A stretch of 64,000 nt of DNA from Psilocybe cubensis (lineage: Eukaryota), in the NCBI GenBank assembly GCA_017499595.2, contig CM039008.1, forward strand, positions 1,612,001 through 1,676,000, written 5' to 3'. Both the position numbers and the translations under genes were made by a program. Shown piece after piece: positions 35,257 to 58,840 of this stretch. Position 1 is the stretch's first letter, and each line of letters opens with the position of its first letter. The notes beneath the pieces are model-generated. The model did no database searches, was not told where the DNA came from, and saw nothing but the letters and a program-made list of their open reading frames with translations.

Positions 35257-35715
35257 GAGAAGTGACCGCTTATTAATCAATGCCAAGGTATAGTGAGTGG
35301 TGAGTCGCTTTTTCAGTGAGTTTCGTAGCGACATAACACAACCTGAGTGTATCCATTTCAACTCCTTATCATTGTCTTAAAGGTCTACGTGTATCTATTT
35401 TCCTTTTTCTTGAAGTCGAAGGTAACGTTTTCACTAAGTACATAGCATATAACTTGATTTTTTGACTTCCGGTAAACAGTGGAAGGAGATGGATTTATAA
35501 CTTTTCTTGTACAGTGATATTTTGCTAATACTGGCACTCTCAGCTATACAATGTGGATTGATTTGAAGGGACACGTTTCTTCAGAATAGTGCGTGATACA
35601 ATTTATTGTCATCCCGCAGGCCCCCGTATTTGTTATGAGTGAGTCTCTTTTTTGTTTGTGCTTCAAAATAAACGTCCAAAGCTACACCCTACAGACCCGC
35701 TCTATATTTTAGTGC

Positions 35716-35880
35716 ATGAACTCATCACCACCCATACCGCACCCAAACGCCAATGCATTCTCGTGGTATGTCAATTGTATGCGCGCACCCAGGGAGGTCC
35801 AGCAACACGAGCTCAGCAAGCAAGCCGGAAAAGTATGGAAAAGCATGTCCGACGAGGAGAAGAAACCATTCTATCTTGTC
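35716..35880 (+). pseudogene. Truncated HMG-box fragment
   Basis: IPHPNANAFSWY..ELSKQAGKVWKSMSDEEKKPFY matches HMG-box helices 1-2. Most of helix 3 and the YPxYKY tail are missing. Confidence 0.7.
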
Positions 35881-36329
35881 TGCAACGGCTTGCAGTTTTG
35901 CTCATTCGTGAATTTTTTGTCTGTGCAATTCTGCAGCGACCGTCTGACACCGTCCCTTCTGTCGCACTTTGACTCACCTTTGTTCTTTGTCGCCATCTTT
36001 GGGATTGTCTTCTTGTGTGCCGCTACTGGCCTTTCGATTCCAGTTGACGACGATATCCAAAACGCTCTTCAGCCTCAATACAAATTGGGGTGGTAGACTG
36101 GGGAGCCTCATTTGCACTGGTACACATACATACATAACCGATCATAACTGTGGATATTTCACCGTCTACGTCCCCTTTCACACCCGGTACACCTACCCGC
36201 CAGGAGCGCCATATCATTCCAGTACTATTAACACATCGCGGGCGTCCACACAAAATTGTACACGCTCACCGTTTCCGCATCGACGGCTACTTCAATCCTT
36301 TAACCTAACCCCACATAGTTGATACTCTA

Positions 36330-37653
36330 ATGGCTCCTCGACTCCGGGTCCTTGCAGGTACATCTCCTTCCTCGATGGTTCCCATAACACACCTCGTCAA
36401 CACTCCACATTCACACCCTATCCGCTCCGATTTGTTTGAAGGTGAATTGGTAGCGCAGATTCAGGGCATGACGGACGAACAGGGAAAAGTACACGAGTCT
36501 GAATATTTCAAGAGAGAAGATCGCGGCGGTGTTACATGGAGTATCGTTGTCCGAGGTGAGTTTGGTTTGCCTATTTTTGGTATTTCGAATTTGCACGATG
36601 TTCGAGTCGCGAGAAGGGGAAGGGTTATTCGTGTGATTCCGTGTGCTGACTTTCGGTGTTATTTTACGTTGGGTGGTGTGAAGGCCGGTTCCTCGTACTC
36701 TATTCAGCGGACGACATTTTATTCGGAAACACATTCGATAGGCCTCTCAAATTACCATGGGGAACAAGCGCGGTACTTAAATTCATGCAGTACGCTCATT
36801 TTATTTTTCTCTCCATCTCTCTCCATCTCTATATTTTTAACTTCAACTGATCTCCATTTCTATAGCTACATCGACCCAACTCTCAAACACGACCTCACAT
36901 CTTCCACCAAGCCATGGGCACTTTCACCACTAATATCGACCATGCCTCATTTCATGCACACGAGGATTCCACCTTCTTCCTCCTCATGTATGCTACCCCC
37001 CTTCTCAGCAAACCAGTCCATCCAAGACAGGAACTCTGGGCTGTACCTTGCCCTCTCTGATGAGCTCGATGAGGGAGATTCTGCATCCAGCTCATCAGGA
37101 ACATCATTCCGCTCTGCGTCCTCCTCCTCCGACAACGTTGCACCGGTAAGCCCGAGTCCCCTATCGACCGCCAGATCCAGCTCGAAGGGATCCTCAACCG
37201 GCGGCTCGAGCTTCTCTGTCAAATCCGCCATGCGCAAAGTCAAACCGAAGCATGCGCGGAGTACGCTTAGCACGGGCTCTTCTTCGTCGTCCGAGCAAGG
37301 AGAACGCCGTATGAAGCGTGAGCGGAAACTGCAGACGCTTTAGACAGCGTCGCAGCGGCGCAGCTACTTTGCGCAAAAAGCCCGCCGGCAGGTCTTCGGC
37401 CCGGAGGATGTGATCACGACCGATTTTTGTTATGGGTTTATCAGTTTTGCGCCGACGTTAGCTCCTGCAACTGCCCGGGGGATTGTCTTTTGACTTGATG
37501 AAGTATTGGGATGGACAGCCGGTTCGGTTTGTTTGTTGTGAGCGGGTGCGGAAGGAGGAAGGAGGAGAAGATAGGAACGGAAAGGAGCCATGGGGAAGGA
37601 TGTTTTGGTGTGTAGCTATCGAGATTGTGGATGAGGATGAGGATGTTAATTGA
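36330..37653 (+). pseudogene. DUF1769-family gene with an in-frame stop and a frameshift
   Basis: MAPRLRVLAG..SDLFEG..TWSIVVRG|RF..ADDILFGNTFDRPLKLPWG..IDPTL.HDL..PWALSPL. After TAG at 37341-37343 the frame continues (RRSYF..ITTDFCYGF). It then shifts near 37465 into LQLPGGLSFDLMKYWDGQPVRFVCC and ends at TGA 37651-37653. Confidence 0.8.
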
Positions 37654-38084
37654 GCTGGGTGGACTAGTCTTGGATTCAAACATCTTATAACATTTGTAAG
37701 GGACACTGTCGGACTTATTGGATAAAAAATCTATTAATATACCCCCAAACTTGCGGTCCCAGGTAACTTTTGAAAGTTTCAAACGGAATGTCGTAGAACT
37801 CGGAAAATGAAATTTGGATAAACTGTCATTTAATTGTTAATCTGGATTGGCAAATATCTCTACACAAACTACCCTGATGTTTGAAGCCCACATGACTCGG
37901 GCAAAGCTAAATGGTCGAAGTCGCCAATCATATACAGGTTTAGGGTTGTTGCCCGGTTTCACTGTGTTCGAGGTCACCATTTCAAAGTCAAGCGTAAGGA
38001 AATAGCTCAGATTTTCTTCTTCAATTGTGACTTATGTAGTAAACTTGGATTATTTGATTTTCAAATAGGATACCCGACGAAACC

Positions 38085-39146
38085 ATGGGCCTGCAAAACG
38101 TCGAGCACAATAAATGTCCACCTGATAATGTGGTTCTTCAATTCAAAGCATTGCGTCAGGCGTCATAAATACAAATTCAAACGATAAACGCCCAAGTAAA
38201 GCGTCTTAAAGCTAAATTAGCCGAACTCGAGGGAATTCTGCACATTATTTTTGAGCAATGCTTGACCGCGACTTGTTTCTAATACATCGTTTCAATGAAA
38301 TAGAGCGTTTTTTCTTTAATGTTGAATTCCATTTATCTGTAAAACCATATGCTATCTGATATGTAGTTTCTATTCTTTTCAGAATAAATGATGGCTATTA
38401 GTCCTTTAGTACAGGGGTGGACGCCATAACTTGGGACAGTCCTTCGGGTCCAGAGGATATGGTACAACTCTTGAAAACTATAAAATTGCGGTCAACGCTA
38501 CTCTCTCCTTATTCCAGTATCCCAAGGTCTTCCAGCGCTCTTTCAATCATTACACTCCTTGACACCGTACTTGATCAGCAATATGTTTAAACATTCCTTT
38601 TTCACCTTGTCGCTCTATATTCTTCAAATACTGAGTGCTGGAGTCATCCAAGCACTCGGCGCTCCAAATATTCTTCGGGGTAGAACAGCCGAACGTGCAA
38701 AAGATATGATATGAACTGGGAAAAGCATAAACACCGTTGCTGACGGTAGATTCTATTTTCAAGTACCGGCCTCCAACAAAGTAGGAGGAGGAGGATATGA
38801 CGACGAGTCTTCTGCCTCGCCTCCATGTCATAAATTCTCATGGCGTCCCATCGTCGAACAGAGAGATGACTCAAAAGGCAACGCTGCACTCGAAAGTACG
38901 CTCAACGATGTAGGAATTATGGATGGAATGTCTCTTATGCCGCGGATGACACGTCAGAAGAACATTGAGTCTAAGCGTAGAAAATATCGTCACCCCGGCA
39001 AGAAAGGCGACGGCTCGGAGCCTGACGACCAAAAACCGGACTTGAAACCTTGGAGGCATAAGGATAAGAAGTATGGAAACGAGAAGCCTGAGGAAAAGAA
39101 TGCTGTTCTTTTTGACGTCCAAGTGACCAGAGAACAAGCACATTAA
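38085..39146 (+). pseudogene. Degraded unknown gene (coiled-coil start, charged C-terminus)
   Basis: MGLQNVEH..LRQAS*IQIQTINAQVKRLKAKLAELEG reads through a stop. Further coding-like pieces with stops run to the K/R/E-rich ORF 38919..39146. Confidence 0.35.
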
Positions 39147-40839
39147 GACTCCCAGGAACCTGCTACCACAACAAAGCAGCCGGCTTCTGGAGGTTGTTTT
39201 ATCCAGGATGTGGTAGAAGTAGAAACTGGAGCGGATGGAGGGCGACGGTGGGACGTACATCAACATTAACTGTATTCATTCGCTAGGTATTTCTCGATCT
39301 AGTGTTTCATTCTTTCTACCCGTAGTCCTTTAGGCTTTGATCTGGTCATCTTTTGTTCGTATGTGGTAAATTACACGCTCGTTTTGTTTTGATATTCAAT
39401 GGTTTCGTCGATTGTATGAATTTCATTAATTATATACTTGGTTTTCACCTTACGGTCTTGTCTTTTTTTGTGAACGAATTCGCCTATGTGCCACACAGCC
39501 GTTGAGCTGCGGAGGAGTGGGATTGAAGGGGGTAAATGGCCAATGGCATCAATAGCTAGATAACTGATCTGTGACGACGGCTTCTTACTTACCTTGGTCG
39601 GGTGGGTATTGAGGTCGTAAATGACAACAGGCTCAAGACGGCATGGAAGGATTGTTGAGCCGCATAGCCCTTCAACTCGTTTTGATGTTATGATATAATT
39701 TTACTGGGTTATAGGTGCAGAATGGAAGAGAAATAGGTGGGGCAGGCAAAGGGTTGATGCAGGTCCAAGGTATGTCCATTGAGCTATAATTCAATTTGTG
39801 CAATGGCGATTGGATGAACCAGAAGCCCTTTTACGCAGGAAACTTGTTCATTCACTGGTCATATCCCTGGAGATGCGGTATGTTGATTGTACTAGGCTTG
39901 GAAGTGTTCCGATGAATGCACGACTCTGCCCGTCATTATCTGGGTGATGTCACCAAAAGGCGGGGAGGATCCATGCGCGAGCACTGTGTTTTCTGGAGGA
40001 GAAAGACATAAAACATATGAAACGCAGTTGTTGTTAAAGTAGTGGTTGCGGGCAAAATGGCAGGAAAGGGAAGTCGGCGTTGACTGAGTTTCAAAATGGA
40101 AAATGCGCGTTGGGCACAAGTCCTCTCTGATCGGGGCCATCACCGGCTGTGTTTTGTATTTTGTATGTTAGAGAAAGGACGCCCGCTTCTCACCCTGGAT
40201 CCGTGCCGATTCTGCAATAATTGCTCGGAATTGTACTTTTGTGCGTCCTTTTGCTTCAAGACCCTGCTTATGTCTTGAAGCTGACCGACCACCACCGCAA
40301 AGACCGCGTAACGAGCGTTCGTTTTCTCCTTTTCTTTCATCTCAACCAGCGACCCACCTTTCGCCCACCGATTATCACACGTCTTTGTCATTCTGCGCGG
40401 TTGAGTCAGCGGAGGAGGCACAGTCGGCGTCCCCACACGGGCTACAAGGTGAGTTGAACCTTGGTTCACACATTGCGTTCTGCAAGTACTGTATTCAAGT
40501 GCTCCAGGTTTGGTTTCCAGTGCTAATTTTGCTTTAATCCAATCAGTTTATTTTCGACAGAGACAAAGTCCGCGCGGGTGCCCTATCTGCGCCAACCTCG
40601 AGGCGTGCTTGTTCTAAACCAATTCTGAACTGCCATATACATTCCTGATCCCCCATTCCCCCGATTCCCACATTACATCGTGAGCTCCCCGGCTTCGCTG
40701 CACCTGCATTCAGAAAGCAGTTGATTGTTTCATTTGCGTCATTCGGCTTGCTTTGGCCTTTTGACTGCTTTCGTCTTGAACGTCGAAACAAACAACAATC
40801 GCTCAAACGAGCCCACGACCCCCTTCAACATAACCTGTA

Positions 40840-42276
40840 CATGGAGGTCTCAGCGATACAGCCTGTGGTGTCGCCTGTGCCTAGCGCTCATAACGGACGC
40901 TCTCAGAACAAGGTCAGTCACTTTTTCCCAACCGTTATTTGCACATGCACCGATCGTTGCGTTCAACTTTGTCTTTGTACTTACTCTTTATAACTGCTAT
41001 GTTGCTTGTGTAGACCCGTGGCTGCAGCACACATACGAACAAGCTTTCCTTTTCCCAAACGATCTCGTCACTCAAGGGCATCATTCGGATACCGAACCGC
41101 AGGAAGCTTTCCACACCCCGCATTCACTTCCACTCTCAGTCGCAAGATGATGCGGACAGCACCAAGTCCACCTCCAACCCCCATTTCACCTCCAGACCGC
41201 GGCCCACGCACGGCCTCTCGCACTCGCTCGACACGCAGGCCCATCTGCACTCGCGCATGCGGAGCACGGGTACTGCTGCGTCCAACGGGAGTGGAAATAT
41301 CGACGGCATTATCTCTGATACTGAAGACTACGATAAACAACAAAGGCGGAGGAGCAACATCAAGAATGACCCGTATGCGCAGTTCTCGCGCACGGCAGAG
41401 GGCCTGAACTATACTTACAAGCCATATATGTCCCAGCCGATGCTTGGCGCTGAGCTCTCCCGGGGCACTGGTGGGGATGAGTTGGTCACTGGTTATGATT
41501 CAGAGTCTGGCTCTGCTTCTGGGTCGGGATATGGAGGGGGTGGTTGTTCGCCTGTTGGGACAGGTGAGGGTGGAGGGAGGACTCCCTTAGGGTTTTCGGC
41601 AACATCACCACTAGCGCTGCCATCCCCATCGCCCTCTCCGACTCCAGTCTTATTGTCATCTCCTCCTGCTATACTCCCGGCGACGGAGGTAGCCTTTTCT
41701 TTGGGTGGAAAAGTGGAAGATACGTTAATCCAAGTGCAGCACGGCGATCAGGGAGATGAGGGGGAGAAGGAGGGGGATATTAATGATCTCTATGATGGCA
41801 AAGCTGGAGGTTCTCTTAACAACGCCGCACCTAGCGACACGAACACGGACACGAACACAAACACGAACATTGGTACTACTGCTAATACTGCACAATCTAC
41901 GACTCTAGCTCAAATTTCATCGTCTACATTTACACCTACGTCAACTATTCAAACTAATTCACATGCCCGCTCCAACTCACCCTTGCCATTATTACCTCTA
42001 CCTGATGGACCCTCTTCGTTGACATCTGCGTCTACATCCGGGGCAGCATTGCGCCCGCGTAGCAGCAACGGCAGCGGTAGAACACCTGCACCCAGACGTG
42101 CGTTACCGCCTCCGCCACCTGAATCACCAATATCTGCATCTTCTTCTGCGTCAGCCGCCCTCTTTGTTGATCATTTTAACAGGAATTCCACAACGTTAAA
42201 CAAAAGCCACCTTTCCATTCAATGCCCATCTCGATTACGTCCCCAGTCAGGCCGCCTACCTACAACACGCCCATGA
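40840..42276 (+). CDS. Hypothetical S/P/G/T-rich low-complexity protein
   Basis: A 339-aa ORF (41257..42276), open upstream to an AG acceptor near 41013, with a likely first exon MEVSAIQPVVSPVPSAHNGRSQNK|GT. No family recognised; it may be a fragment. Confidence 0.5.
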
Positions 42277-42544
42277 TCTCTTATTACTTCGTATATACCG
42301 ATCCTTCCTTGCACTTCCGACGGATTGTTCAGCCAGAGTCCAGAAATCATGTAATTCGGCCTATCAGCTTTCTTCTCTAGGCAACATACAAAACTGGCCA
42401 CCCAACACCGTCTTCTTCGACTTGCGATAATCCTTACCCCCGTGCCGACTATCTGGCACTAATGAAGCACACCATCTCAGAGCGAAAGCTTGAAGGAAAA
42501 AACTTGATGCAGCAGTATCGAGGTGCTTGTCGAGACAGCTATGA

Positions 42545-43310
42545 ACTTTGTTGGGAAAGATGACGCACAGATCTCGAAGATCACTCCAGCCAATGTGCGT
42601 CAACATTCTTCATCTTCAATGGAAGCCAGCTGGATGCAAACATGATGGGTGTTATACAATACCAGTGTTAATTTGGGATGTCACTAGTACCCGACGTTGT
42701 GAGGAAATGCCTGAGTCCCAGAGAAATGCTCGACTCCACCTCATGGGCGGCATCTTGTGCGTGTTCCTCCTTTTATTACCCATCCACTGACAATGCCATA
42801 ATAGTAAACCAGGAAAACCTGAAGAATGAGAGCAAATTGATTGTGCGTGAGATCATTGTCGAGCGCCCCCTTCGGTGAGTTTCCTTTTTTTCTCAACAAA
42901 AAACCCCTCCGACACAGCCAATGAATTTTTAGTGTATTTGTTCTCACTCCTCATTCCCGATATCCATCCAGTTGTGATTGTAATGATCTCGACATAATCC
43001 TCCACCTCTCCGTCTGCCATCCACACCATTAAACATTTCAATTACTCTTTCAACTTCCTCAGGCGTCGAGATGATTCCCCTCCGTTGGAACCAAACTTGT
43101 GAAACAATGGAGAAATTTGCCTGCGGGCATTACGCGTCGGGTGACACAACAAAAAGAAGTACGCGCGAGTTGGGCGGATTCCAATGGCGACACATCGATG
43201 ATTCGCTTGTGTTCAAGGGTGTGCTGTTCAACAAGGACATCCACCTGCATATGCAGCGTAAACTCAGCTTTCATATCCCGCCATTGTACATTACCGACTG
43301 CTCAACGACC
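42545..43310 (+). pseudogene. CCT3: Relic of the N-terminal part of chaperonin CCT gamma subunit
   Basis: Collinear, frameshifted pieces AQISKITPAN, VPDVVRKCLSPREML..LMGGIL, IVREIIVERP, DIHPVVI, SVGTKLVKQWRNL, KKYARVGRIP and IDDSLVFKGVLFNKDIH..MQRKL. These parallel CCT3 AQ.SNI.AAK / VADVIRTCLGP..MGGIL / ILREI.V.HP / IHPVVI / IGTKF..RW / KRYARVEKIPGG..DS.VL.GV.LNKD. Confidence 0.75.
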
Positions 43311-44083
43311 GCTATACGGCGCATGCACTCATTCCAATCTAGGGCAATGGCGGGATTAGTGCCAAGGCCAAGGCGGGACCCCCACGTGTGATTGTGGTGA
43401 CGTGACTACCCGTTCCAACGCGTCAGCACCCTTGTCGCCACCTGTCTCTCACCCCTCATCGAGTGCTCTCTGTTGCCGCTTTTTCGACGCCATCCACCAG
43501 CCACATTCCCATCGCAAGGAGTGACAACTCGGAGGATAGATATGCAAGTATTGGGAAAAGGTATCATATTGGGTTCTGGGTGCGTCACTACTCTTCTTTT
43601 TGAATGTCCCCACCCTTTCTTGCAATGGCAGCCTAGAAATACTCATGCCTGGGCATACACTGGGCTGTTCATGCTTCCCTTTTGATTTCTTTGAGGCTGT
43701 ATGGTAATGTGGGTCCTAATTCAATCCAATACCGAAAGATACACAAGGATAACAAATAAAAAAAATGAAATACTCAGAAACTACAAGCAAATCAAACAAC
43801 CACATGGAAGACAGAAAAGACGATACAAGCAAACAGGAAATAAAGAGAGGAAATGGATAAGAGCTACATCAGCTCCCAATCGGCTCCCTTCTCATGAAAC
43901 CGTTGGTACAAGCGTGCAGGGCTTCGTGTTGTGCATTGCTGCCCCCCTCTCTCCTGCTCCTCCTCCTTGATCGCTTCTTGTCCCCCATTTAACGTGGTGC
44001 TATCATCGTCATCCAAGATCCGTCATATTCATCCCTCCTCAACCGACGCATGGTGCCGGAGAAATGATGACGAGGCGATATGC

Positions 44084-44694
44084 TTAGTAGAGGCGGACGG
44101 GCTTGCCCATGATGGTCTTGATGTGAAGGGACTTGACGTTCTGCCAGTTCTTCTTGAGCAGCGAAACGAGGAAGTTGATGCCTGAGGCAGAAAGAATGAC
44201 GATTAAAGGAGTTTCAATTGAAAAAGTTCAGGGCGACTCACTCAGCATGACGTTTCCGAGGACCTCGTCGTCGTTCACCTGGACGTGGCCAACAGCAACA
44301 CCCAAGCAAAGAACCTTCTTGAGCTGGAACTTGATGGTGGAGCGAACCTCAGTGGGCTTGTTGGTGAGATCCTCAGCGTGGGAGACAGGTGGGGAACTTT
44401 CCAGCTTTAATGGATATGTCAGCAACTGTGGACGTATGAACAGATTGGAGCGAGACTGACCCTTGGAGAGACCAGACGGGGGATCTGGTTGATGAGGGCT
44501 TCGGAAGCAAGGAAAGCATCGTCCTTCTTGGCGAGCTTCTGGTTCTTGTTCACTTTCAAAAAACGCAATCTGTCAATATGGCTAATTCGCCCTGCGATAA
44601 TTTTCAGTACTCACTTCTTCAAGTCATCGACGCACATGTATTCGAGCTCAATCTGCTTAGCACGATTGATGTCGGCGGCATCAGCGAGAATGCA
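44084..44694 (-). pseudogene. RPL1: 5'-truncated, intron-retaining 60S ribosomal protein uL1 (RPL1/RPL10A) relic
   Basis: ILADAADINRAKQIELEYMCVDDLKK|..KLAKKDDAFLASEALINQIPR..GLSK|..VSHAEDL..EVRSTIKFQLKKVLCLGVAVGHV..|[31 protein letters not shown]. Three introns are retained, small deletions cause frameshifts, and no N-terminal exons are present. Confidence 0.93.
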
Positions 44695-45099
44695 ATTTCC
44701 AGGAATATGGTGTGTGGCTGTGGGGTACTTGATAGCTGATTGAGAAAGGCGATCAGGAGTTCGTCGGTTATGGTCCAATTACAAAGCCGATCAGTGGCAG
44801 GCTAAAAATTCTTTAAATTCATTTATGCTCAGAATTCCACAAGTATTTCGCTGTACACATGTAAAACGTAGATAATGTTTCTGTAGTAGTTGTGTGTAAC
44901 CTGCTTTAATATTCCAAACCAACGAAACTGAAGATTTCCTTCAACGCTGGTATTTCCGTCTCTCTAGGTAACCCTTTTTTCCCGCACGTCGCACATGAGT
45001 ATATTATATGAAAAACTCCAAGCCTGGATTTTTTTCTGAGATTAAACACGCAGGATTTGCAGCATAGATGGCCGCATCCAGGAAATCTTAGGTTATATT

Positions 45100-45859
45100 A
45101 GTATCAAATTGTTAAGCAATTAAAACTTCGAGACGCACAGTATCACCGAATCCTTTCCCATCAATTGATAGCACTTTGGGCACGATGATTTCTGAATAAT
45201 GAGTGTTTCTAACTGCTTCCGGCGTCAGAACAATCAGGGGGTTGATATTGCGAAGATGGTACATACATCCTGCAGTCTCTCTTCTGCTGTGTTCCGACCA
45301 GTTGAATCTTGACCTGAATTTATAAATATGTCCAAACTTTCGCTATATAGCTCTCACTGGTTTTGTCTCGGAAATAAGGATATCTAATGTCTTTACAAGC
45401 ACCTCAAGCTTATCAATTTCCTATGCAACTGTAAGTGTGAAAACTGCGTGACCATTTAATAACCATTGCGTACCTGCTGGCTTTCGGTGAACTGCTGGTA
45501 CTTCTATCCCACACGTCATAGCTTAGGACATGTTCTAAATAGCAGAGATGTTATAATAGATACCTGTTGAGCGTCTGCCTGAAACTCGTGTAATAGCCGT
45601 GTAGCTTCTTCTCTCTCTTCCTCCAGCTCAACAAGACACTACAACGGCAAGGTAAGGTCGATTGACCGGCGAAATGATGGAAACTCACAATTTCTGAGCC
45701 CTGTATCTTAGACATCTGGTGCGCTGCCTTATATCTTTGAAAGGATTCCGATGCACCCAACGCAACCTCCAATTCGTTCATCTCCATTTCAAAATCCTGC
45801 TGAGTTTCTGGTACATTCTGCATAAAGGTTAGTGTGTCATTAATTGATGGCAGATTCAA
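45100..45859 (-). CDS. Hypothetical acidic/coiled-coil protein, multi-exon (boundaries uncertain)
   Basis: ORF MNLPSINDT..QDFEMEMNELEVAL..SEI followed by a GTGAGT donor, then further helical exon-like segments (LEEEREEATRLLHEFQ, EIDKLEVLVKTL). Confidence 0.4.
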
Positions 45860-46559
45860 GAGACATTTGGCTTATTGGTGTTAGGTAGAAGCATAGAGAG
45901 TATCCCTCGTGCCCTTGAACCGGATTTGAACTTTGCCAGAGACATAACTGAAGGAGCAGTGGTGTATATAATGAGCTATAATCAATGGTATAAAGTTTCT
46001 TTATATAGTTTTGTCTCCAGTGTCCACCAGAAAGTGACATTTCCAGATCATGTTCGCACTCTGTATTGTGACCGTGTGTAGATATCCTCGAATGTTGTTG
46101 AACAAGCGCAATGCGACTCGCCAGGAACTGAACATGGTTGCGAACATGCCATATATCCAATGCAACAACAACAACCCTTGTTCTATAAAGGTCAATACAA
46201 CATACAGGGATGCCAGGGTTGCTGATATAGTGGTCACTTCGCAACAGATTGAAGATTCCGTCAGGCCGATCACTTGCATCGGACAGTCTTGGTAGACTAT
46301 TATTTCCTTGAAATAAAGTCAATGCAATTAATATGGAAACAACTTTCGCGTATACTGCACAAATGGTCACAACGACAGTGTGAGATCTCGTTTATGTAAA
46401 GTAAGCGATCATTTGCGACTCGATTATTACAGACGGAGTACTGGTACTGTGTGTCGGTGACCATAGGAACTATACTTTCCCTAAATTTGAGCGGGAAAGC
46501 ATAAAGCATAAATATTAGTTCAACAACCCCGAGATCGACGAGTTACAATCAGGTTCCCC

Positions 46560-47759: not shown

Positions 47760-48659
47760 GTTACCATAGCCGTACAACATGATATCGCCTTGCTGTAAGT
47801 AAGGCTCTCCCAGCCCATAATTATGTAAGAATGTTGAACCAAAGTTTGACTGTATTTTTGCAAGGGCATTATTACTAATATCTCATGTGTAATAGCAATA
47901 TTAAGTACCGTATAACGAGGAATTAGTGCCAGCCCCAGCCTCAACGGGATGAAGTTTGGGCTCAATCTAACCCAATGTCAAATAAAGATAGTTAAACTTG
48001 CACTGTACTGATTTATCCTCTAGAAAACCTTCTACTGGTTTTCTCAAAATGGTCTGTTTTATCTCCATATTACATCTACTAGTAGTATATCTACTACAAA
48101 TTGAGAAATATACGTGCCCATTCCATCCATTATTGGGTACTGCAATTCGATATCGTGCCCTCATTGACAATCGACAGTGTAGTAGGACAGCAAGGCGCTT
48201 GCCAACGGAGACGGCCACTAGTGAGAAATATATATCGGTATCATGATACTGTTGACGGATTTTCATTACGATATGTATTACACATCAAAATTCATAAGTA
48301 TCATGATGATTTCTCGCCTCGGATTATTGTGAATTACTTTGCAAACCGCTAGATCATGAGAATATGAGATATATATTATACATTACTTGCTTTGTAGAAC
48401 AGAGGCCTACGGCTTCTTAACTTCATACACACCGTCCAGGAAGTGACGTGTAATTTACCTTGTTATCTACGTCGATACAGAACTCAGAAGTAAATTACCT
48501 GTGTAGTAGGAACCACAACTGCAGCCTTCCACAGCATTGTCCAAAAGACAACCTGTTTTACCCATGACGCACACTAAAACATCCAGAATAACCATATATC
48601 TGGATTGCGGAATCTTCAAGAAACATTGTGCTAAGAAGGTCACCCCGCTGTTTGCCTGA

Positions 48660-49500
48660 CGCCAGCCACGCGGCAGAGTGTGTGTTGTGGTGGGTACGCA
48701 CAGCATGACAGGATTGCACGCGGGGCACTGCGTGTTCAGGTGGATTGGGCTTGGGGGTGCCCTGTGGCGTTCGTGGATATGGAAAGCTGGGATGGCAGGG
48801 AAGAGAGCACGACATGCAGCTGAGTGCGTGTCGTGATGAACAGTGGCGGCGGATGGCACAATACGAAGTGCTTTGTGTATTGTTATGGGCGACGGAAGAA
48901 GCAGCGGGGGGAGCAGAGGGTGGACTGAGAGTGGAGGAAACGACACGCGGTCGCGAAGGGGTGGACCGCAATGTGCATGTCATCGTGGGCAGAGAAGATG
49001 GAAGTGGAGTCGCGGAATGCGTATTGTGGTGGCGGGTGTGTGTGGATACGTTGTGTCGTGTTGTAGCGAGAGGAGCAAGCAACATGTGTAATGTGAAAGC
49101 GGAGGTGGCGTGGAAGCGCTGCGTGTCACATTGGGGGAGCGGCAGGGACGAGGTGAGTTGCCTGGGAGCGATATGCGGGAGGCGGCGGTGTATAGAGCAC
49201 AAAACCGTGACGCAGTGCCATGCGTGTTGTGTGAAGCGGAGAGTGTGGCGGGGTTGGGGGGCATGCAGTAAGACGCAGCATGTTGCTGTAGCAGAGAGTG
49301 GAGACATGTGCAGGCGCTCTGTGTCGTTATGGGCAAGGAGTTGAGGAGACGGGGTACAGAACAGAATACATACCGCCGTGCCTATCGCGGTGGGCGGAGA
49401 GGGCATAAGCAGCACAGAAGGATAGGGAACACAATGCGCCCCGAAGTGAGTGTCATGCATGTCGTGGTGGATGGAAAGAGCGGCGGAGTTAGCAGTTATC
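48660..49500. repeat. G/T-skewed low-complexity tract, probable degenerate repeat or TE interior
   Basis: Dense GTGT/GCG/GGAG short motifs and recurring (T)GTAGC(G/A)GAGAG and GCATG. The long ORFs on both strands are compositional artefacts. Confidence 0.5.
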
Positions 49501-50557
49501 GTTTAAGGAGGGGAATTGGGAGACGAGAGTGATGCTGTGGTCGGTAAATTACAGCGGTGGCAAGGTCGATGTCGACGACGAGGATTTCAAAGACAAGACC
49601 GATACTAGATTGAAAAATACCATGCCACAATTCCATACCTGTATCAATCGGCGCCTGTCTGCAGAAATGAAGAAGGAACGTGGAATACTTACCACTGGCA
49701 AATTTGGTTCCATGTGAATGACAACATTGAGTGGCCAGCATAAATCAGCGATGATATGGGTGCTATATGCATCATTAATAACAATCATCGATGTACTATT
49801 GACCATGATAACGGTTAAAACGGTCTCATCATGAAGCTGCCCAGCACTAAGATAGTTCTCGAGCCACGAGTCAAAATTATAGGTCATAAGAGACAATCAA
49901 ATGGAAACGAACTGTTGTCTTCGCCACTTCCGTAACCGTGATACGATAGACCGTTGATGGTGTTGTTGGCTTCCTCCCACCGTTTGCCTGGGAAATACTA
50001 ACAAAGGGACAGTTTCAAAAGGGGAAGAGTACCTGATCTGACTTCCGCCAGCGGCCAGTGGTACTTCATTGCTCACCCTCACCTTTCGACTGTTATTTGG
50101 AAAGCTGAGAATGCGGCGGGGGGCAAAAGGCCACAACGAACAGGAATACTGCTACTCGTTGTCAAATTGAAGGAGTGGTGGTGGGAGATGGGCGTGACAA
50201 GCATTGACTGCTTGACGTCGTTGAGGGAGCGGCGGGAAGGGACGGGCGACAACGGGTAGAGCCAAACTGGCTGCTTGTTGTCTCTATTGTCAGAGAGGGT
50301 CGGAGGCGACGTGAAGACAAACAGGGTGGGTGGTGGCAAGTACGAGACCAGCGGCTTAGATGATGAGACGGTGCTACCTCCATTAAAGGTCACGAGCTCA
50401 CTCGGGCAGCGGAAACCGGCCTGGATGCCGGTCCTCAAACGACGAAAAACGCGCGGTATATTTGCGGTATATTGATGAAGAAAAGAAAAGATTAAGTTCT
50501 TTCGAAGAACTCTCTAACATTTTGTTGAAACTAGTATGCTATTAAACCAAAATCTAG

Positions 50558-51840
50558 CTAAGGAAATGAAACTATGATTGTCATAATGTCCCAATCTGTA
50601 GTCGCAGATGGAAGTGCGAGTTCAATCTCTCTCTCGATTTGATGCCTCGCATCTTCTCGCTCCTGGTCACCGAGGATTCTCGAACTCCAACAATGTGCAT
50701 GGATAACCACTCCCTCTAGGTCTGGAAACATGTCTAAATTTAGAAAACTGTCCAAAACTGTCCACGGTCCCAGGTCGGACTGTATGTGTGCCCTGGAAAG
50801 ATTAACTTGGTCCAACTCAATAGTCAGATGCCGTAGATTGTCTGGCCACGCTTCCAAAATCGAGGTTATGTGTGCAATGTAGCGCCCTATTGGTACGGCT
50901 CTCGTGGTTGGATGCATATGGTCTCGATGTCCGTAGTGTAAAGTCAAATCAGTGAGATAAACATGATTTGGAAAGTTAAATGCTAGGCGCGCGGGAAAAT
51001 GTCGATTAAGATCTATCAGGTCAAACATTAAGTAAAAAATGAAACAGTCGAGGTAATGATATGGAACGCACCACATGGATCAAACATGACACATAGGCGC
51101 TCAATGCTTGATGAGAAGTGTTCTTCTAAAATATCAAATTCTTCTTTGAGGACCTGAGGCCCAGCAGTATCTGTCTGGTCGATACGTAGGCATAAGATCT
51201 TCAGAGAAGGTTCTTCACCATCCGTTGAATGGAGGCCGACCGGATATATTGTCCGAACAACCGATAACTTGTCGGTCTCAATGGTTTCAAGGCTTGGGAG
51301 TCGAAGGGCATTGGTATTCGAATATGTCATCGTATTTGATACCTCACAGGCAATGAGAGTCAAATCTACAATTGATGTCCCGTCGAGGATGTTCCTTGGG
51401 AGGTTTTCTACGTTGTTGAGCTTGAGCGATACCAATTGGTTGGATTTAAGAAGATTTCCGAAGGATCTTGTGATTTGTTGGTGCATAAACCAGTCAGAAT
51501 AGAACAGGGGACCAGATAAATAGAGCGTTTCCACCTGCAAACTGGGGTGACAAAGCATATCAAGAACAATATTGAGGTTTTGGAGAATTTGGATCTTCAT
51601 AGCGAGAGTCGGAGTATACACGGTGCCGACCTGAGCTTGCACATAGAGGATACGAACTCCTGGAAGAATACCAGTATCACAAAATTCCAGCAAACTGCGA
51701 AGGAGGAATAGTCTCAAATGGATTTCAAGTGCATTATTCCCCGCCACACATATAGTTTCAAAAAGATGGCGGTGTTCGGGCCAAGGAAATGAAGGCGAGG
51801 AGACCTCATTTTCGGGTTGCGCAACGAAGGTTAGTGACAT
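50558..51840 (-). CDS. F-box-like/LRR-like family paralogue A (lacks the N-terminal F-box-like motif), 2 exons
   Basis: Aligns by eye with 52696..54054 (LKLNNVENLPRNILDGTSIVDLTLIAC vs LRLCEVQDLPKDVLQGTSIIHLTVLDC; LEAWPDNLRHLTI vs LAAWPPSLQRLTL; EIELALPS vs EIKLALPT). The intron at ~51012-51068 is at the homologous position. Confidence 0.75.
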
Positions 51841-52695
51841 GGGGGTGTTGAGATGAAGGAAATGAGAAAGAATTTGTCGGAATATATTCTATGTGTCCAT
51901 CAGATGGGTAGAGCAAAATATTAACGCCCTGATTGATATATTGATGCCATGGCTGATCATATAATTAACGCCCTGACATGAACAATTCTTGGTGTCAACT
52001 TGCTGACATGTAGATGTGAAGTGTGCGATTTGGGGAGTAATGAGAACATACAAGGGCTCCAATGACCTGATCGTGATCGCAAGCTCCGTGCCCTATTGGA
52101 CTTGGACAACTTAAGGGAAATCTAGTATAAAAAAATCCTGGAATTAATCAAGCCACAAGTCATTGGCCGGAATAGCTAGTAGGCTTCGGCTCGATTGAGA
52201 TATTGTTCCTGTATGCCAGGTATTCGGGAGAGCTACGGCATAAATGAAAGTAGAGTTAAACATTTCGTCCAGTGCCAAACACACAGCTGTATATAAACCC
52301 TCCCTTATTGCAACTCAAGTGTACGTACCAAGCACATGCAAGTCACATTATGTGAACTCATGCTAATGGACTCTAGCTATACTCCTGACCATATAAAGAC
52401 TGCGCTACGAACCATGATGTCCGCGTGGCTTGTCAGAGGCTCCTGGGATCATTGTAGGTGAGCGATAATCGAGACATTGAATCCATTTTTGTTCCCCTCT
52501 CATTCTCATATAAAAGATGTATCGGGAACATGCTCTATTGGCGATGTACATTGGTGTCCTTTGCTATCTTTGCGGTCGGTCATCAAATAACCTTTTCGAC
52601 ATTTCGACAATGGATACATATAAATTATTACGTGATGATATGCCATCGACACAGCGCGTGGATAACTAAGTGATCATGACCACCTTGGTAGCCAG

Positions 52696-54054
52696 CTAAC
52701 GGCATGAAACTGCTACTGTCATCTTGCCCTGCTTGTGCAGAGTGGGAAGAGCCAGTTTGATTTCCTGCTCCATCCGAAGCTGTTCCACTTTGCGACTGTG
52801 GTTAGTCATAATATTGTTAGGAAATAGACAGAACGCCTTGATGTCGACACCACCGAGATGTGGAAAAATGTCCACGTTTAGTAGAATATCATCAAGTTTT
52901 GTCCATGCCTCGATTGGCATACCCAGCGATATGTCCTCTGCACAGTAAAATAGATTGTCAAAAATGAGTGTTAGTCGTTGAAGAGAGGGTGGCCACGCTG
53001 CGAGAACTGTGATCGCATGGCTGACGTATGCTTTAGTTGGCAATGACGTCCTTGACAGGTCTGTGGGTCCGTAACGCAGGGTCAAATAGTTGAAATTATT
53101 GAGTTTTGTAGAATAACTCATTGGTGGAGTTAGAAAAAGTTGAACAAGGTCTGTTGAGTCATGGGTTATGAGCACAAGAGGGTTAAAATGGAGGTAGCAG
53201 ATAATACCATTTGAATCAAACACAATATACAAACTCTTAACGGATGGAAAGAGCTCCGCCACTGTGTCGCATTCCTTGTTGAGACCCCCAAAAAAACAAG
53301 TTCTCATATCGATACGCAGGCATACAGATTTGAGGCAAGCTTCTCCATTGCTGATCATTGAACGCTGGGTCTCTGGATATAAAGCATGAACCATAGGAAG
53401 ATCGGTAGTTTCAATGGTTGCGATCTGAGAGAGAGGAAGATGGACATCCATAGCGCCCATGGTGTCGGATATGTTGCAATCAAGAACAGTCAAATGAATT
53501 ATTGATGTCCCTTGTAAGACGTCCTTGGGAAGGTCTTGCACTTCGCAAAGCCTAAGAGATAGCAATGTTGGGGAGCGGATCAGGTTTTGAAGGGATCGCA
53601 CAACCTTGGATGGTAGGGAAGAGAAAAGTGGGCCATGGAATTCAAAGGTGTGTAACCGAGCTTCTGAGTGACGAAATGCATTCAGAATGAAATCAAGGTC
53701 TTCGATTATTTGCTTGCAACGACTAGGCTCCGGATTGCCGAGAATGGAAGTAATGGGGGCAGACATTTGAAAAATTCGAATATGGCGGAGTATGCTAATT
53801 TCCATGTCTGGGAGATCAACGAGGCTGCGAAGGTGCTTTAATTTTACACGGAACGCATCCTCATCATCCTCAAAGAGGCTGATAAACTTGAAGAGGTATC
53901 GTTTTGCACTCCAGCGGAAGGTAGGCGAGACACGGAGACATGTGCGTAATGTCTGTGCACAATCCGGCTGGAGAATTATATAACCGCTATGGTCAGAGAC
54001 AATTGAATCAATAATTTGAGTCTGGATCTCTGGGGGGACTCTTTCTTGAGACAT
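52696..54054 (-). CDS. F-box-like/LRR-like protein, paralogue B
   Basis: The N-terminus VPPEIQTQIIDSI..TLRTCLRVSPTFRWSAKRYLF has the agaric F-box-like pattern, followed by LxxLxL repeats. The 452-aa ORF probably includes a 57-nt in-frame GT-AG intron (~53151-53207). Confidence 0.8.
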   Translation of the reverse strand: MSQERVPPEIQTQIIDSIVSDHSGYIILQPDCAQTLRTCLRVSPTFRWSAKRYLFKFISLFEDDEDAFRVKLKHLRSLVDLPDMEISILRHIRIFQMSAPITSILGNPEPSRCKQIIEDLDFILNAFRHSEARLHTFEFHGPLFSSLPSKVVRSLQNLIRSPTLLSLRLCEVQDLPKDVLQGTSIIHLTVLDCNISDTMGAMDVHLPLSQIATIETTDLPMVHALYPETQRSMISNGEACLKSVCLRIDMRTCFFGGLNKECDTVAELFPSVKSLYIVFDSNGIICYLHFNPLVLITHDSTDLVQLFLTPPMSYSTKLNNFNYLTLRYGPTDLSRTSLPTKAYVSHAITVLAAWPPSLQRLTLIFDNLFYCAEDISLGMPIEAWTKLDDILLNVDIFPHLGGVDIKAFCLFPNNIMTNHSRKVEQLRMEQEIKLALPTLHKQGKMTVAVSCR

Positions 54055-54565
54055 GGGGGTTCACATCATTTCGAGTACGATTTCTCAAATTTAAACAAAA
54101 CCATAGTAGGTTCACGGGATGCCAGGAGCTTGAACATCCAATGTAACTATGGTTTCTCGAAGTCTTGGCCTTCTATATACATCTTCGCCAACAATTGTAG
54201 ATCAGTAGTTTGTATACATTGCGACAAGTCGCTAAATTAGCGCCGATTGCCAACTTCGAAAACTTAGGTTATGCAAATGTTGATAACCAACCATTCCCGA
54301 TACAACCGACCTTAGGGAAATACGCATCACGTACCTGGAAATACTACATTGGTCGCATTTATCGTTTTATCGTGCATAATGAGCCACGGCGAGAGTGGAG
54401 TCATTACAGTTTCCCACGCGTATATTGCTTCTTTTGGTTTGCTCATCCTAGAAACAAAAAAATAAGCGAGTCGCATACCTTCAGGTATTGATCAGGTTCA
54501 AAATGTACCTTGCCTCATTGGCGACTCGTGAAAGATGTACAAATGCGACTGAATAAAGGTTTCAT

Positions 54566-54728
54566 TTTGGTAATTGACCAAACAATCAACCTTGTTCCAA
54601 AATCGTCCACGTACCTGTGAAATTGACACACTGTGACTTCGAAGTCAAGAGCGTACAAATGAAATTTGGTAATTGACCAAACAATCAACCTTGTTCCAAA
54701 ATCGTCCACGCACCTGTGAAATTGACAC
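54566..54728 (+). repeat. Direct repeat, two ~63-bp copies 99 bp apart
   Basis: TTTGGTAATTGACCAAACAATCAACCTTGTTCCAAAATCGTCCACG(T/C)ACCTGTGAAATTGACAC at 54566 and 54665, with one mismatch. Confidence 0.92.
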
Positions 54729-55176
54729 TCGGCACTGTGACGCGACTTCTAAATTGAACTTTGACCTGACTCTCTTTCCATCTATGGAAATTCGTCATCT
54801 AAATATAAAATCGAGCTAGGCGCCTCCTCACCGAACCTCACCCAACCATACTCGATCTTTATTCACGTGATAAAGAATTCCTGTTATCTACCTTCTGCTT
54901 CAATATGTTACACAGTGTCAATCGAGAGCCTCTTTCAATGTCTGCCGGCACAGATTGTTCCCCCTCACAGTCTTCAAAGTTGTTAGGACCGCAGACACGC
55001 GTTAAGTCCGTTTTGTGTTAAAATACGTTAAATTCTGACGCGTTAAATACAGTTACGTCGTTCTAAGCGCGCAAAGGCGAGTAAATGCTGTTTGTCTGCG
55101 CCATTATATCTTTCTGATTTAACCACTATAGAGTTACAGACCCAATAAAAGATTGGAGGACAGGGACGCGTCTCAG

Positions 55177-56245
55177 ATGCACCGGACCCAGCCTGCGGCC
55201 ACATACCTTGTTGGTCAATCTGTTGAGAAACAAGTAAGTTTCCCTGGTCCGTGTATTCCCAAGATATGTGTTGATATCTGACTCGTTATATTTGTGGCGG
55301 CTGTTTGATTGCAGAACGACAGTCGGATGTTACTTGACCACCAAGTGCCCGATAGTGTACAGTCAATATCGCATAAGCAGGCGGACCTAATCCCGGAGAC
55401 AGAGGTAAGAAAATTTTCTGCCTTTCTCTGTGTTCTCACCGTTGACGTGTCTAGTTCAGATTAGTGAATTAAACCAACCACAAGTCAATTGTCGAGACAT
55501 GCATAATGGGCCATGTGCTGGCCTTCAAGACATAAAACGCGACTATGAGAAGCATATTAATGCTGTTAATCATGACCGTGAACTTGAGAGAAAGGAATTG
55601 AGCGAGACAAAGATGATGCTCACTTCTTCTATGCTAGACTGTGCAACACTGCTCTCCGAATTCCAACAAGCAAAAGATGCATCAGACTCCCAGCGTGAAT
55701 ACTTCGAAACAATCATCCATACTTTATCGAATGAACTGGACGCAGCAAAGGCTACATATTGGAAAGACGTCCAGTCTGTCCTTCTTGATTACCAAAGGTC
55801 TGAGGCAAACCTTCGTATGATGCATGTTGAGACAATTGCAGCGCAGAGGACCCTTGAAGAGCGGTCAAAAACTATAACCGAACTTGAAGCTCGCTTGGGA
55901 TATGAGAGGGCAGCTCGTGAAAGGCTCGATGATGACCTTGCTATTGCGAAGAATGCTCTGGCCGGTGAGTGTAATGTCACAGATCAAACTCCGGCTAACC
56001 CAGGTCGTATTTTAGATGCCCTTGCTGGGGAATCTCGCCAGTTCGAGGCCCAACGCTCTAGAGAGCGATTAATGGAGGCTTTTATTACAAGGATGAGGGC
56101 CCAGGTCGCCGATGCTACACTTATTGATAAATATGAGAATACCTTCCACCAAATCCCGGAGGTCATCGATCTTATAGAGAGGCATCGTAATTTGGTGGAA
56201 ATTGTTGGAAGTTTTTCTACGGTCATTGAAGCAAGCGATCAATAA
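55177..56245 (+). CDS. Hypothetical coiled-coil protein, at least 3 exons (the true start may be further upstream, ~54938)
   Basis: MHRTQP..VEKQ|NDSRM..PETE|ISELNQ.. joins through phase-0 GT-AG introns into the heptad-rich ORF ending at 56245. Confidence 0.65.
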
Positions 56246-57359
56246 AAAAATGATGTAGATTATCTTTAGCTCTAATACCAGTAGGTAACTTCGAAGTATG
56301 CAATATCTAAAATGTGATTCAGTATATATGCTCTGGTAAAATAATGATACCCAGGAAGAACTCAACTCAAACCATACTCATGCCTCTCTTGAAAGTGAAA
56401 CACGGGTAAACATGGACAAGTTCAATCCATATGAATCTCCTTTACCCAATGGTGTGCCAAATTCCATCCCCAGCTGGGGCTGTTTAACCTCGACTGATGA
56501 AGAGATCGGAGTTGTTATCGAGGTGCATGTCGGGTCTGAAATCAAACTCAAACAAAGATGAAGAGTTACTACCACAAATCAAAATAATTTCTGGCACTTC
56601 ATCGGCTCTGCCTGCATATGCCTGCATCCACCGTAATATATAAAGATGTGACCATAAGTTTTATTGAGTGTAGAGACTCTGAGAAGGAAGAATTTCTCAT
56701 TATATGTCAAGGGAGAATAATCACAAACAGACATATAGGCAATGGGGTTTTGAAGACTCGTACATGCCATACGAAGTGGTGGCCCATCTACAAGTTTTCC
56801 CGTGTAGAAAGTGCGCTGTACAGTGTATATAAACACCGATGTCCAGGCATGCACGGCATAGACAGAATGCCGAAAAATGACTGTATATCTTTGGGATGAA
56901 GAAAGGTAAGAATAATCATACAAGGAACCTTCAGATATAAGTGAGGGAACAAATTATGTATAAGAGGGAGTGTTTGCTCTATGTAAGGGATTGTGATTTG
57001 TATATGTGGGCACCAAAACTATATGTATGGTACTGAAAATTGTATCCGAGGGTGCAACCTATGAATGTATGGATACTGGATTTATATGTTCGGAAACCAC
57101 CTTTCTCTATACTGGAAACCAGATTATGTATATGGAATTGTGCATAATTGCGACTTCTATGTATGGGAAAAAAAGTTTATAGATTGGTATTAAATGTGCA
57201 AACGGACAGCCATAGCACAGGTCCAACCTGGAAACACGTTAAATTGAAAACAGATATCAGCGAATTTGTTACTTACAAACGGATCGCCGCTCTTAGTAAA
57301 TGCCATGATACTACTCTGAACAAGACGGTAAATCAGCAACCGAAAAAAGAAGAATAAAA

Positions 57360-58840
57360 TCGCACCTATTACATCTCCCACTCTCCATCTTTCGCAAATT
57401 GCTCCGGGTGTTCAACAGGACAGGGAGGTACGTCCGGATCGCGTTCGAGACGTGCAGGTTGAGCACAGAGTCGTCCCACACACCCCTCTTTCGTACGTCC
57501 CTCCGACGCGTACCTGCCGCCTCCCAGGATGATGAGTGAGTTCTTGTGTTCAGTGTCCTGGTATCTCGGGAACCAATACTCATCACCACCGTCACCACCG
57601 TCCCACAATGTCAGCCATCCCAAAGAAAACGCGTTGACAGATGAACGCACAGCGCTGACTTGTCCTCTTGTAGGCTTGATCGCGTACGCCCCGCGCGGAA
57701 GTTGGGACTCCGTCGAGAACAAACCTACGTCCTGACCACCGGCGACAGATCCAGGCTCTCATTCAATACGTAATCAACAATATTTGCCGCGTCTTCTTCT
57801 TCGAGTCCGGCGAGGAAGGGCAAGAGATGTACAGCGTAGCCGTTAGTGGCGTGTATGACATACTCGCAAGTCAGTATTTCCTCGGGCATGTACAAGTTCC
57901 AACGACGGCACGGCTATTTTGATAATTCCTGCTCGATATTCGTGATGGATGTAACAGGGGTCTTGATGTGCAGCTCAACCGTCACCTTGGGTAGGGGAGT
58001 TTGGGCATCTTTGAAGAGATGGGTAACGAGTTTGCATGGCCAGAGATTGTGACCCCGTAGATGAACAGCAGAGTACCCAAGTTTAGGGTCCACATGTTAC
58101 TTCTGCGCGCAGGTCGAATCAGGTCGAAACGTAACAAGGAAAAGTAGGCTGACCTTGCTCAGCTTCTCATTGTCTATCCACTCAACTTTCGCGTCCGGCC
58201 AACAATCCCTGCGCTTTTGACCTTCTCCCAGTCATCCCGAAAGGCCTACTCTTCTATTTTGTTTCTGAATAACGTCAAATGACCAGCCTCGACCAAATCG
58301 ACTTCATGTTCCAGTCCATTCTGCTTGATGGACTTGACCATCCCGTTGGATGTATGAGCTTCTCACGCGAAGGATTTCAACGCTTCTGTTGTATTGTAGC
58401 GGGCTTGCAGAGCCGAGAAACCGTGGAAGGTAATGGGAGTCAGGTGTCCACCGTTTCTTCCTAAACTTTGTCATTCGAACCCATCCATTATTGAATCTTA
58501 AGAATCTTGCTTGTAGCACCCGAGCCTTTGAACGTTCAATTCAAAAATTCGACATGACAGATATAAGAAAAAGCTCACAAAATTGACGCGCTTCAAGAAT
58601 AACCACACTCCTCTGGCGTTCGTACTCTTTGAGAGAGTTGTCCTGGAGTAACTTGGACAAATGCCATGGAGTAACTTGGACAAATGCCAGGCGGCACTAA
58701 CGCCAGTGATACCGCCCCCGAATAAACAGATATTGGCGTCCGTTGTGAGCGCACTTGTGCTTCCATATTCTGAGAGGGTCTTTCTGTTTCTGCGACAGGA
58801 TCATGATGGAAGGACGCATCCAATCCAATGAAGTTCATTG
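57360..58840 (-). pseudogene. FAD-dependent oxidoreductase (DAO-like family) pseudogene
   Basis: Collinear, frameshifted motifs NICLFGGGITGVSAAWHLSK (Rossmann), LEARQF|.SGAT, GHNLWPCKLVTHLF, TPVTSI, YVIHATNGYAVHLLP, PTRGQVSAVR, EYWFPR and IILGGGR. Introns are retained and a 23-bp tandem duplication lies at 58644-58689. Confidence 0.85.

Follow-up and report, generated by a model that had tools for sequence, protein, structure and literature searches.

Gene relics in Psilocybe cubensis very probably belong to a giant, putatively autonomous CACTA/EnSpm transposon

Following up a sequence-only reading of a 64,000-bp stretch of the Psilocybe cubensis genome (the window; C11:1612001-1676000, contig CM039008.1), which had reported a collage of damaged gene copies at 35700-58840, we found that the collage forms, with high probability, the left portion of a single giant transposon of the CACTA/EnSpm cut-and-paste type, probably an autonomous one. 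The serial capture of gene fragments by one large element that this reading had proposed is supported, and the element is of CACTA type. Its label "non-autonomous" does not agree with the open Tnp2 transposase gene inside both copies of the element, and its boundaries fall within the actual unit, which runs from 34850 to 74 kb past the window end. The CACTA superfamily and its gene capture are already well known; what is new here is the size of the element and its cargo-filled arms of 8.8 kb.

Extent, copies and strain polymorphism of the element

The search space was the whole genome (46.6-Mb, 21 contigs), and positions above 64000 continue the window numbering into C11. Near-identical genome matches to the window DNA all start at about 34850, the left end of the element, whose main features are the following.

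C11:1646850-1750222: CACTA element, C11 copy, 103,373 bp; the in-window portion, 34850..64000, is its first 29.2 kb
34847..34849 (+): left copy of the target site duplication, TTA; the right copy, TTA, is at C11:1750223-1750225
34850..43685 (+): left terminal inverted repeat (left arm), 8,836 bp, starting with CACTG, 99.5% identical to the right arm
C11:1741403-1750222: right inverted repeat, ending with CAGTG, outside the window
C11:1705601-1709249, or 93601-97249 in extended numbering (+): Tnp2 transposase gene, four predicted exons, 1,159 aa

A second, colinear copy of 108,833 bp lies at C12:1794952-1903784 and is 99.8% identical to the C11 copy; the assembled genome holds these two copies of the 103-109 kb element. 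Both start with CACTG and end with CAGTG, and their target duplications differ by site, TTA/TTA on C11 and TGG/TGG on C12. The 25-bp tip has four perfect occurrences in the genome and two more with three mismatches, compared with none for the reversed control. A few 9-mer direct and inverted repeats are found near the left tip, at 34893-35516 (no shuffle control).

The interiors of the two copies differ by 205 substitutions in 87,071 aligned bases (0.24%), and the copies are further set apart by four nested insertions or indels longer than 200 bp. Only the C11 copy carries a Ty3 long terminal repeat (LTR) retrotransposon (C11:1688256-1694634; identical 450-bp LTRs, CAGAT duplication), along with an extra 750-bp piece. 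Only the C12 copy carries a 12.2-kb block (C12:1811223-1823470) with a 1,414-aa endonuclease/reverse-transcriptase frame of the long interspersed nuclear element type and a 62-bp tandem array, along with an extra 228-bp piece. An assembly gap of 100 N is located in the C12 copy at the inner end of the left arm, and the C11 copy contains no N.

Strain comparison used reads or contigs aligned to 31001-51000 from 4 of the 14 listed runs, which come from four studies and none of which is flagged as a possible source. The C11 site is empty in all three DNA runs (X5, X7 and X13, from three studies), with 34849 joined to the right flank through a single TTA. In X7, depth is confined to 6 of 30 bins, all of them flank or junction bins, and the 24 element bins have none. 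The X13 raw reads cover all 30 bins and include 18 reads of the empty C11 site, 20 reads with a loose end that matches the C12 right flank, and 24 reads at the inner arm junction, 43685; the interior depth is about half of the flank depth. X5 combines the empty site with interior contigs (depth 24 versus 41.5; contig depths, not copy numbers). Thus, strains are polymorphic at C11 and can lack the element, and the insertion on C12 is present in an independent sample. The fourth run, X10 (presumed RNA, with spliced contigs), has depth in 11 of 30 bins and inside the element only at 39005-42339, where 32 differing letters in the two pieces listed fit the parent locus on C8; the run is uninformative on cargo expression.

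Transposase and sister families

The Tnp2 gene is located in the element interior, not in the arms, and 30 kb outside the window. For this reason the sequence-only reading saw no transposase. A four-exon model with three GT-AG introns gives an open 1,159-aa protein in both copies, with seven differences between them. PF02992 (Transposase_21) matches this protein at 41.1 bits, against a cut-off of 28.6, and DUF4218 matches weakly (E 5e-4, under the Pfam cut-off). A search with exon 2 recovered 836 relatives among 8,000 candidates scored, with PF02992 present in 119 of the 120 listed. Among these 120 homologues, D431 is conserved in 120 of 120, D527 in 118 of 119, C546 in 119 of 119, and C549 in 117 of 119, and both sister families described below retain WWTFPFER as well as HPNHHMAMH or at least its H positions, with PNHHMAMH and FPFER identical in both. 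By these residues, the predicted protein is a transposase of the D-D-E type with the C(2)C and H(3-4)H motifs of EnSpm. The gene is also present as a partial second copy at 110370-113530 (extended numbering).

Among the element frames scanned with Pfam, there is no match to Transposase_24 (a TnpA-like second gene), to tyrosine-recombinase or RepHel/helicase domains (frames shorter than 80 aa and some others were left out), or to Tet_JBP, where a gene in short exons could escape. A scan of 147 short frames gave matches for six, four of them in the element. Plavaka elements have 124 matches in the genome, none inside either element copy, and the Plavaka transposase domain PF18759 reaches 21.5 bits, below its cut-off of 26.3. 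Recent amplification is suggested for one Plavaka family, which has 13 near-identical matches (272-278 bits) spread over nine contigs.

Relatives of the transposase at 52-56% identity are found elsewhere in the genome, in two sister families. The 38.9-kb family consists of C6:3225475-3264415 and C11:1990243-2029182, which are 99.98% identical and have 1.66-kb arms; its target duplication is TAT/TAT at one locus and mismatched (TTG/TTA) at the C11 locus. The family of about 50 kb has both ends at four of five loci (C4:3848554-3898719, C11:2664375-2715878, C1:107413-156670 and C3:2140896-2191515), with lengths of 49.3-51.5 kb, duplications AAC, TCA, GAA and ATA, and 10.7-kb arms (measured at two loci) that hold mitochondrial-carrier and Peroxin-3 pieces. 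For the fifth transposase of this family (C9:2337894), no ends were found in the two stretches examined. All sister elements begin with CACTGC, and they have these tips, multi-kb arms and a transposase exon 2 of 50-51% identity in common with the 103-kb element, but they are half its size or less and carry other cargo. Three genes are common to all three families, including a beta-propeller-like gene and a 'GYSSDE' frame, and the two non-transposase genes common to both sister families are candidate second genes. A Spt5-like KOW gene is common to the 38.9-kb and ~50-kb families, with no match found in the 103-kb element. Two short elements, at C10:2752242-2752694 and C5:165938, have tips 77% like those of the 103-kb element and are possible MITE-like derivatives (MITE, miniature transposable element with inverted repeats); their target duplication is not clear.

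The element also contains long frames that belong to no relic.

50558..54060 (−): two F-box-like orphan genes, one a 454-aa open frame (52696-54060), the second copy (50558-51888) divided into two frames
55409..56245 (+): orphan frame of 278 aa, whose paralogue (72% aa) is a frame close to the right arm

A third F-box-like paralogue lies near the right arm, and no parent of the F-box-like genes was found outside the element. Atlas look-alikes of the F-box-like orphan are F-box proteins with scores of 0.95-0.97, a lead that comes without an alignment. Look-alikes of one gene come from fungi, and those that score best are mostly from Basidiomycota. The F-box-like gene and the 278-aa frame form a module present as an old direct duplication inside the element (52923-56300 versus 123950-128706 in extended numbering; 65% and 85% DNA identity). 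Its frames, still long and open, hint at selection.

Gene relics, inverted arms and order of capture

The relics and captured pieces of the window, with their parents, are as follows.

35734..35872 (+): HMG-box relic, 5' piece; PF00505 at E 7e-5; parent C9:2421556-2421668 (90%)
35871..42160 (+): 6.3-kb block from C8:829242-838596 (93-95%), inserted into the HMG relic
36331..37650 (+): Duc1 (DUF1769) relic with introns, within the C8-derived block; PF08588 at E 1e-18
41014..42160 (+): truncated 5' part (~1.1 kb) of a 1,723-aa parent frame; parent C8:837423-842591
42161..42566 (+): HMG relic, 3' exon, frameshifted; parent C9:2421907-2422318 (87%)
42565..43258 (+): CCT3 relic, 5' part; parent C1:165387-166224, minus strand, a Cpn60_TCP1 gene; 65-73% DNA identity
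43727..44694 (−): RPL1 relic, 3' exons, three introns and downstream DNA; parent C1:228854-229924 (90-91%)
49542..50101 (−): Argonaute relic; parent C3:445034-445602 (72%), with ArgoL1 and PAZ in its frame
56837..57214 (no strand): 378-bp piece of a dispersed repeat present on most contigs
57215..58788 (−): flavin adenine dinucleotide (FAD) oxidoreductase relic, DAO family; parent C12:2085432-2086967 (90%), with PF01266

All five relics named by the sequence-only reading (HMG box, DUF1769, CCT3 5' part, RPL1 3' part and FAD oxidoreductase) are present, and each was traced to a parent elsewhere in the genome at 65-95% identity; its list was incomplete, and the Argonaute relic and the part of the 1,723-aa frame are added here. 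The parents lie on C9, C8, C1 (two places 63 kb apart), C12 and C3, and Pfam confirms the parents and, directly, three of the relics. Each of the five named relics carries a frameshift, a truncation or both: the Duc1 relic has a frameshift near 37464 and two stops relative to the parent reading frame, and the FAD oxidoreductase relic has several frameshifts and stops. Moreover, all seven relic intervals compared are 98.9-100% identical in the C12 copy, with identical lesions. In total, 13,658 of the 29,151 in-window element bases match DNA outside both copies (hand-listed matches, repeats included). Beyond the window, the cargo includes pieces of genes for a cytochrome P450, a sugar transporter and F-box proteins, which match C1, C9 and C12, and the element also holds RING, HMG and CFEM frames there. 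The identifiable cargo is mostly decayed.

Retained introns had been taken as a sign of DNA-level copying, and the RPL1 relic bears this out. The splice model of its parent gives an open 219-aa protein, and all three introns tested are kept in the relic with GT..AG borders (53 of 62, 56 of 56 and 51 of 60 bases identical); intron DNA is also present within the Duc1, HMG and CCT3 alignments. The RPL1 3' part itself spans 44043-44694 (minus strand, 91%), and the 5' coding exon of the parent that was tested has no match in 43600-47000. For CCT3, no parent closer than the C1 locus is found among the matches listed; the aligned intron DNA argues for descent from this locus or its ancestor, and a divergent source is possible.

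Since the parents differ in place and divergence, capture was serial. The HMG relic (87-90%) is split by the C8 block (93-95%), with 238 bp of HMG missing at the join, and by this nesting the C8 block is judged to be younger than the relic that it interrupts. The block itself is without the parent's 3-kb stretch that holds an F-box-like frame. Overlaps at the three junctions examined are 2, 0 and 2 bp, in line with gap-filling and template-switch models for Pack-TIRs, whose median junction overlap is 2 bp (PMC8277862). At 42541-42591, the HMG 3' exon and CCT3 meet in frame with a 2-bp overlap; a chimeric gene was considered and rejected, because both parts are frameshifted and the frame is kept by chance in one case out of three. 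Relative to the C8 parent, C-to-T/G-to-A changes outnumber the reverse transitions by 93 to 50 among 223 substitutions, and of the 174 interior transitions between the two copies, 118 are at CpG and 139 have A/T in C11. This C-to-T and CpG bias fits methylation-driven change, as we infer from the substitution pattern.

The HMG, Duc1 and CCT3 relics are located inside the inverted repeat and are therefore present four times in the genome. Differences between left and right arm that are common to both copies number zero in the outer 8.66 kb and five in the inner 175 bp, and the arms of the C12 copy differ by two substitutions. Eight substitutions set the two arms on C11 apart from the two on C12. 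Of these, six fall within the C8 alignment, one of which is uninformative; polarised with the C8 parent, the other five comprise two that are derived in both C11 arms and three that are derived in both C12 arms. Since the same derived mutation occurs in both arms of one copy, exchange between arms is needed. The C12 cases could be an assembly effect, but the C11 cases are not explained by the gap. The arms are not separate elements, because their inner ends have no CAGTG tip and the genome has only four occurrences of the tip.

Genes and repeats around the two insertions were recorded as well.

33900..34802 (−): host PhzF-family gene, outside the element; the insertion is 47 bp upstream of its predicted ATG

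The element puts 103 kb between the PhzF gene and its upstream DNA, and an X10 contig reaches 34839 (a contig cannot show the start). It is possible that the C11 insertion is a strain-specific regulatory mutation of the PhzF gene. The C12 copy is located about 0.4 kb upstream of a minus-strand gene (C12:1793177-1794532) that has no Pfam match at E 0.001 and whose start, by eye, we take to resemble FHA/Nbs1. Left of the element, the window holds aldo-keto-reductase-like genes, recognised by eye (6213-6269, 9742-10609 and 32981-33037). It also holds Copia-type retrotransposon frames at 428-5059, judged by eye to be integrase and reverse-transcriptase-like; DNA flanked by 34-bp inverted arms (2539-2572 and 3742-3775) interrupts them at about 2575-3665. 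A MITE-like stretch of 411 bp at 13235-13645 has 47-bp inverted arms (96%).

Mechanism, rival explanations and known systems

In the mechanism that we propose, the element's own transposase would cut at both tips and move the whole unit, and copy number would rise when the donor gap is repaired from the sister strand. Cargo would enter piecewise, through the repair of breaks inside the element by template switching to distant host loci. A short ancestral inverted repeat may have grown to kilobases by copying one end onto the other, and arm-arm recombination or gene conversion would then keep the arms alike; because the arms homogenise each other, cargo captured near an end would be doubled. 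Captured housekeeping fragments would be passengers that decay, partly via CpG-methylation-driven C-to-T change, and the small gene core common to the sister families would be kept.

Several observations weigh against a mobile, autonomous giant. Movement is read from target duplications and empty sites, not observed, and the empty-site data cover C11 only. The splice model of the transposase was drawn by eye, the position of the catalytic E (E926) falls in a gap in 113 of 120 database homologues, and a sister-family transposase could have acted in trans. The gap in the C12 copy means that its continuity and the near-identity of its arms could be partly a product of assembly, and the C11 copy is not brand new, given 23 arm substitutions in the outer 8.66 kb and its gained Ty3 element. 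Finally, junction overlaps of 0-2 bp are often expected by chance and do not prove template switching.

The rival that deserves most attention holds that the element is now immobile or needs transposase in trans, its giant form having moved once or twice by accident. Its two copies, their 0.24% divergence with four large nested differences, and a CpG decay that is strongest in the C11 copy all speak for it. However, the transposase frame is open in both copies with all motifs, the tips are perfect, presence and absence are polymorphic among strains, and full copies of the 50-kb sister family number at least four, with target duplications that differ, and we regard this rival as rather unlikely. 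A composite macrotransposon, in which two smaller inverted elements mobilised the chromosomal DNA between them, would account for two long inverted arms around a unique interior and follows a model described for Pack-CACTA (PMC6379663) and Ac macrotransposons (PMC9910405). We consider it quite improbable, since the arm, tipless at its inner end, is no element alone, the transposase sits in the interior, and this interior is a mosaic of many loci with three genes in common with two sister families.

Scattered parents, nesting and the same lesions in both copies together show that the collage is neither one decayed segmental duplication nor an assembly error, the two outcomes that the sequence-only reading had named as counting against it. 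The C8 block does keep the parental gene order, as a segmental duplication would. But the parents are not adjacent, the C11 site is empty in other strains, and the whole collage, in the same fragment order, recurs on C12 between other flanks, leaving a segmental duplication or a fixed hotspot for templated insertions next to no probability. An assembly artefact, with collapsed or duplicated haplotypes and lesions that are sequence errors, could appeal to the 100-N gap, but independent X13 raw reads cover every bin, the C12 junction and the inner arm junction, X5 contigs cover the interior, and the lesions recur in both copies; it is extremely unlikely. A Helitron, one of the options raised at the outset, or a Starship would fit in that both carry cargo in fungi and Starships reach this size (PMC12134995). 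The inverted CACTG ends, the 3-bp duplication and the lack of RepHel and tyrosine-recombinase matches among the frames scanned with Pfam make either one scarcely credible.

Thus, we favour a giant CACTA transposon, and a broader reading can be offered tentatively. A mushroom clade of giant CACTA elements (39, 50 and 103-109 kb) may take the Starship role with a DDE enzyme; kilobase self-homogenising arms may help to pair ends lying 100 kb from each other, mobility may be supported by a conserved accessory core, and working genes (the F-box-like paralogues, the long HMG frame and the CFEM frame) may be carried from one locus or strain to another, and possibly from species to species. According to a 2019 review, the efficiency of DNA transposition falls above ~6 kb of cargo, and 100-200 kb is given only for artificial constructs (PMC6431247). 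A natural cut-and-paste unit of 103-109 kb exceeds the largest CACTA size in the literature compared more than threefold, and the element can be tested as a candidate for gene movement on a large scale in mushrooms. It opens two questions to testing within one system, the size limit of DDE transposition and the progress of gene capture, given that captured pieces of differing age are nested and that homogenisation is recorded in four arm copies.

Helitrons have a RepHel gene, no terminal inverted repeats and no target duplication, and the inverted ends and 3-bp duplication of the present element do not match them. Drosophila Foldback elements have long inverted arms, and giant FB-flanked 'TE' elements occur. 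The Foldback element FB4 appears in PMC8277862. Foldback composites join two elements around one host segment, whereas here neither arm is an element and the interior, an old mosaic, has a gene core of its own. Ac macrotransposons of maize (10-28 kb; PMC9910405) also involve large DNA moved by a cut-and-paste transposase, but they are two elements around one host segment.

CACTA/EnSpm elements are described with 5'-CAC..GTG-3' ends plus a 3-bp target duplication (PMC12730594, PMC12810828), and with an EnSpm transposase that has D-D-E, C(2)C and an H(3-4)H between the second D and E (PMC12730594). The element agrees in its CACTG tips, 3-bp duplication and Tnp2 with all of these motifs. CACTA elements typically have short terminal repeats, tens of bases long, and subterminal repeats built of 10-20-bp units; the terminal repeats here measure 8.8 kb. 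CNIRT6 of Cryptococcus neoformans, a fungal example of this superfamily (CMC/CMCT clade), is ~7.5 kb with 24-bp inverted repeats (PMC12810828), compared with 103-109 kb and 8.8-kb repeats here. Other reported CACTA sizes are up to 30 kb for the largest in wheat (PMC4290129), 16-20 kb in Chondrus (PMC6431247) and 20.5 kb in soybean (PMC2613891). In the mostly open-access literature searched, no fungal CACTA element was described that is this large or has inverted repeats of kilobase length; the family table of PMC12730594 may be relevant to the claim on size.

Pack-CACTA, Pack-MULE and Pack-TIR elements likewise hold intron-bearing host fragments from several loci between inverted ends, with short junction overlaps (PMC6379663, PMC8277862), and Pack-MULEs are mostly 1-2 kb (PMC6431247). 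However, Pack elements are non-autonomous by definition, and the present element, ~100 kb long with cargo inside its inverted repeats, falls outside that definition because of the open 1,159-aa transposase model in both copies. The Starships of ascomycetes resemble it in size, cargo load and presence/absence between strains. Eight Starships are reported in Tremella in a 2026 paper (PMC13066641), although a 2026 preprint describes Starship-like elements as not characterised in Basidiomycota (10.64898/2025.12.30.697041). Starships use a tyrosine-recombinase captain at the 5' end, whereas the element described here combines a DDE transposase with long inverted arms and host cargo that is mostly broken, and its 5' end, where a captain would sit, holds the HMG and Duc1 relics.

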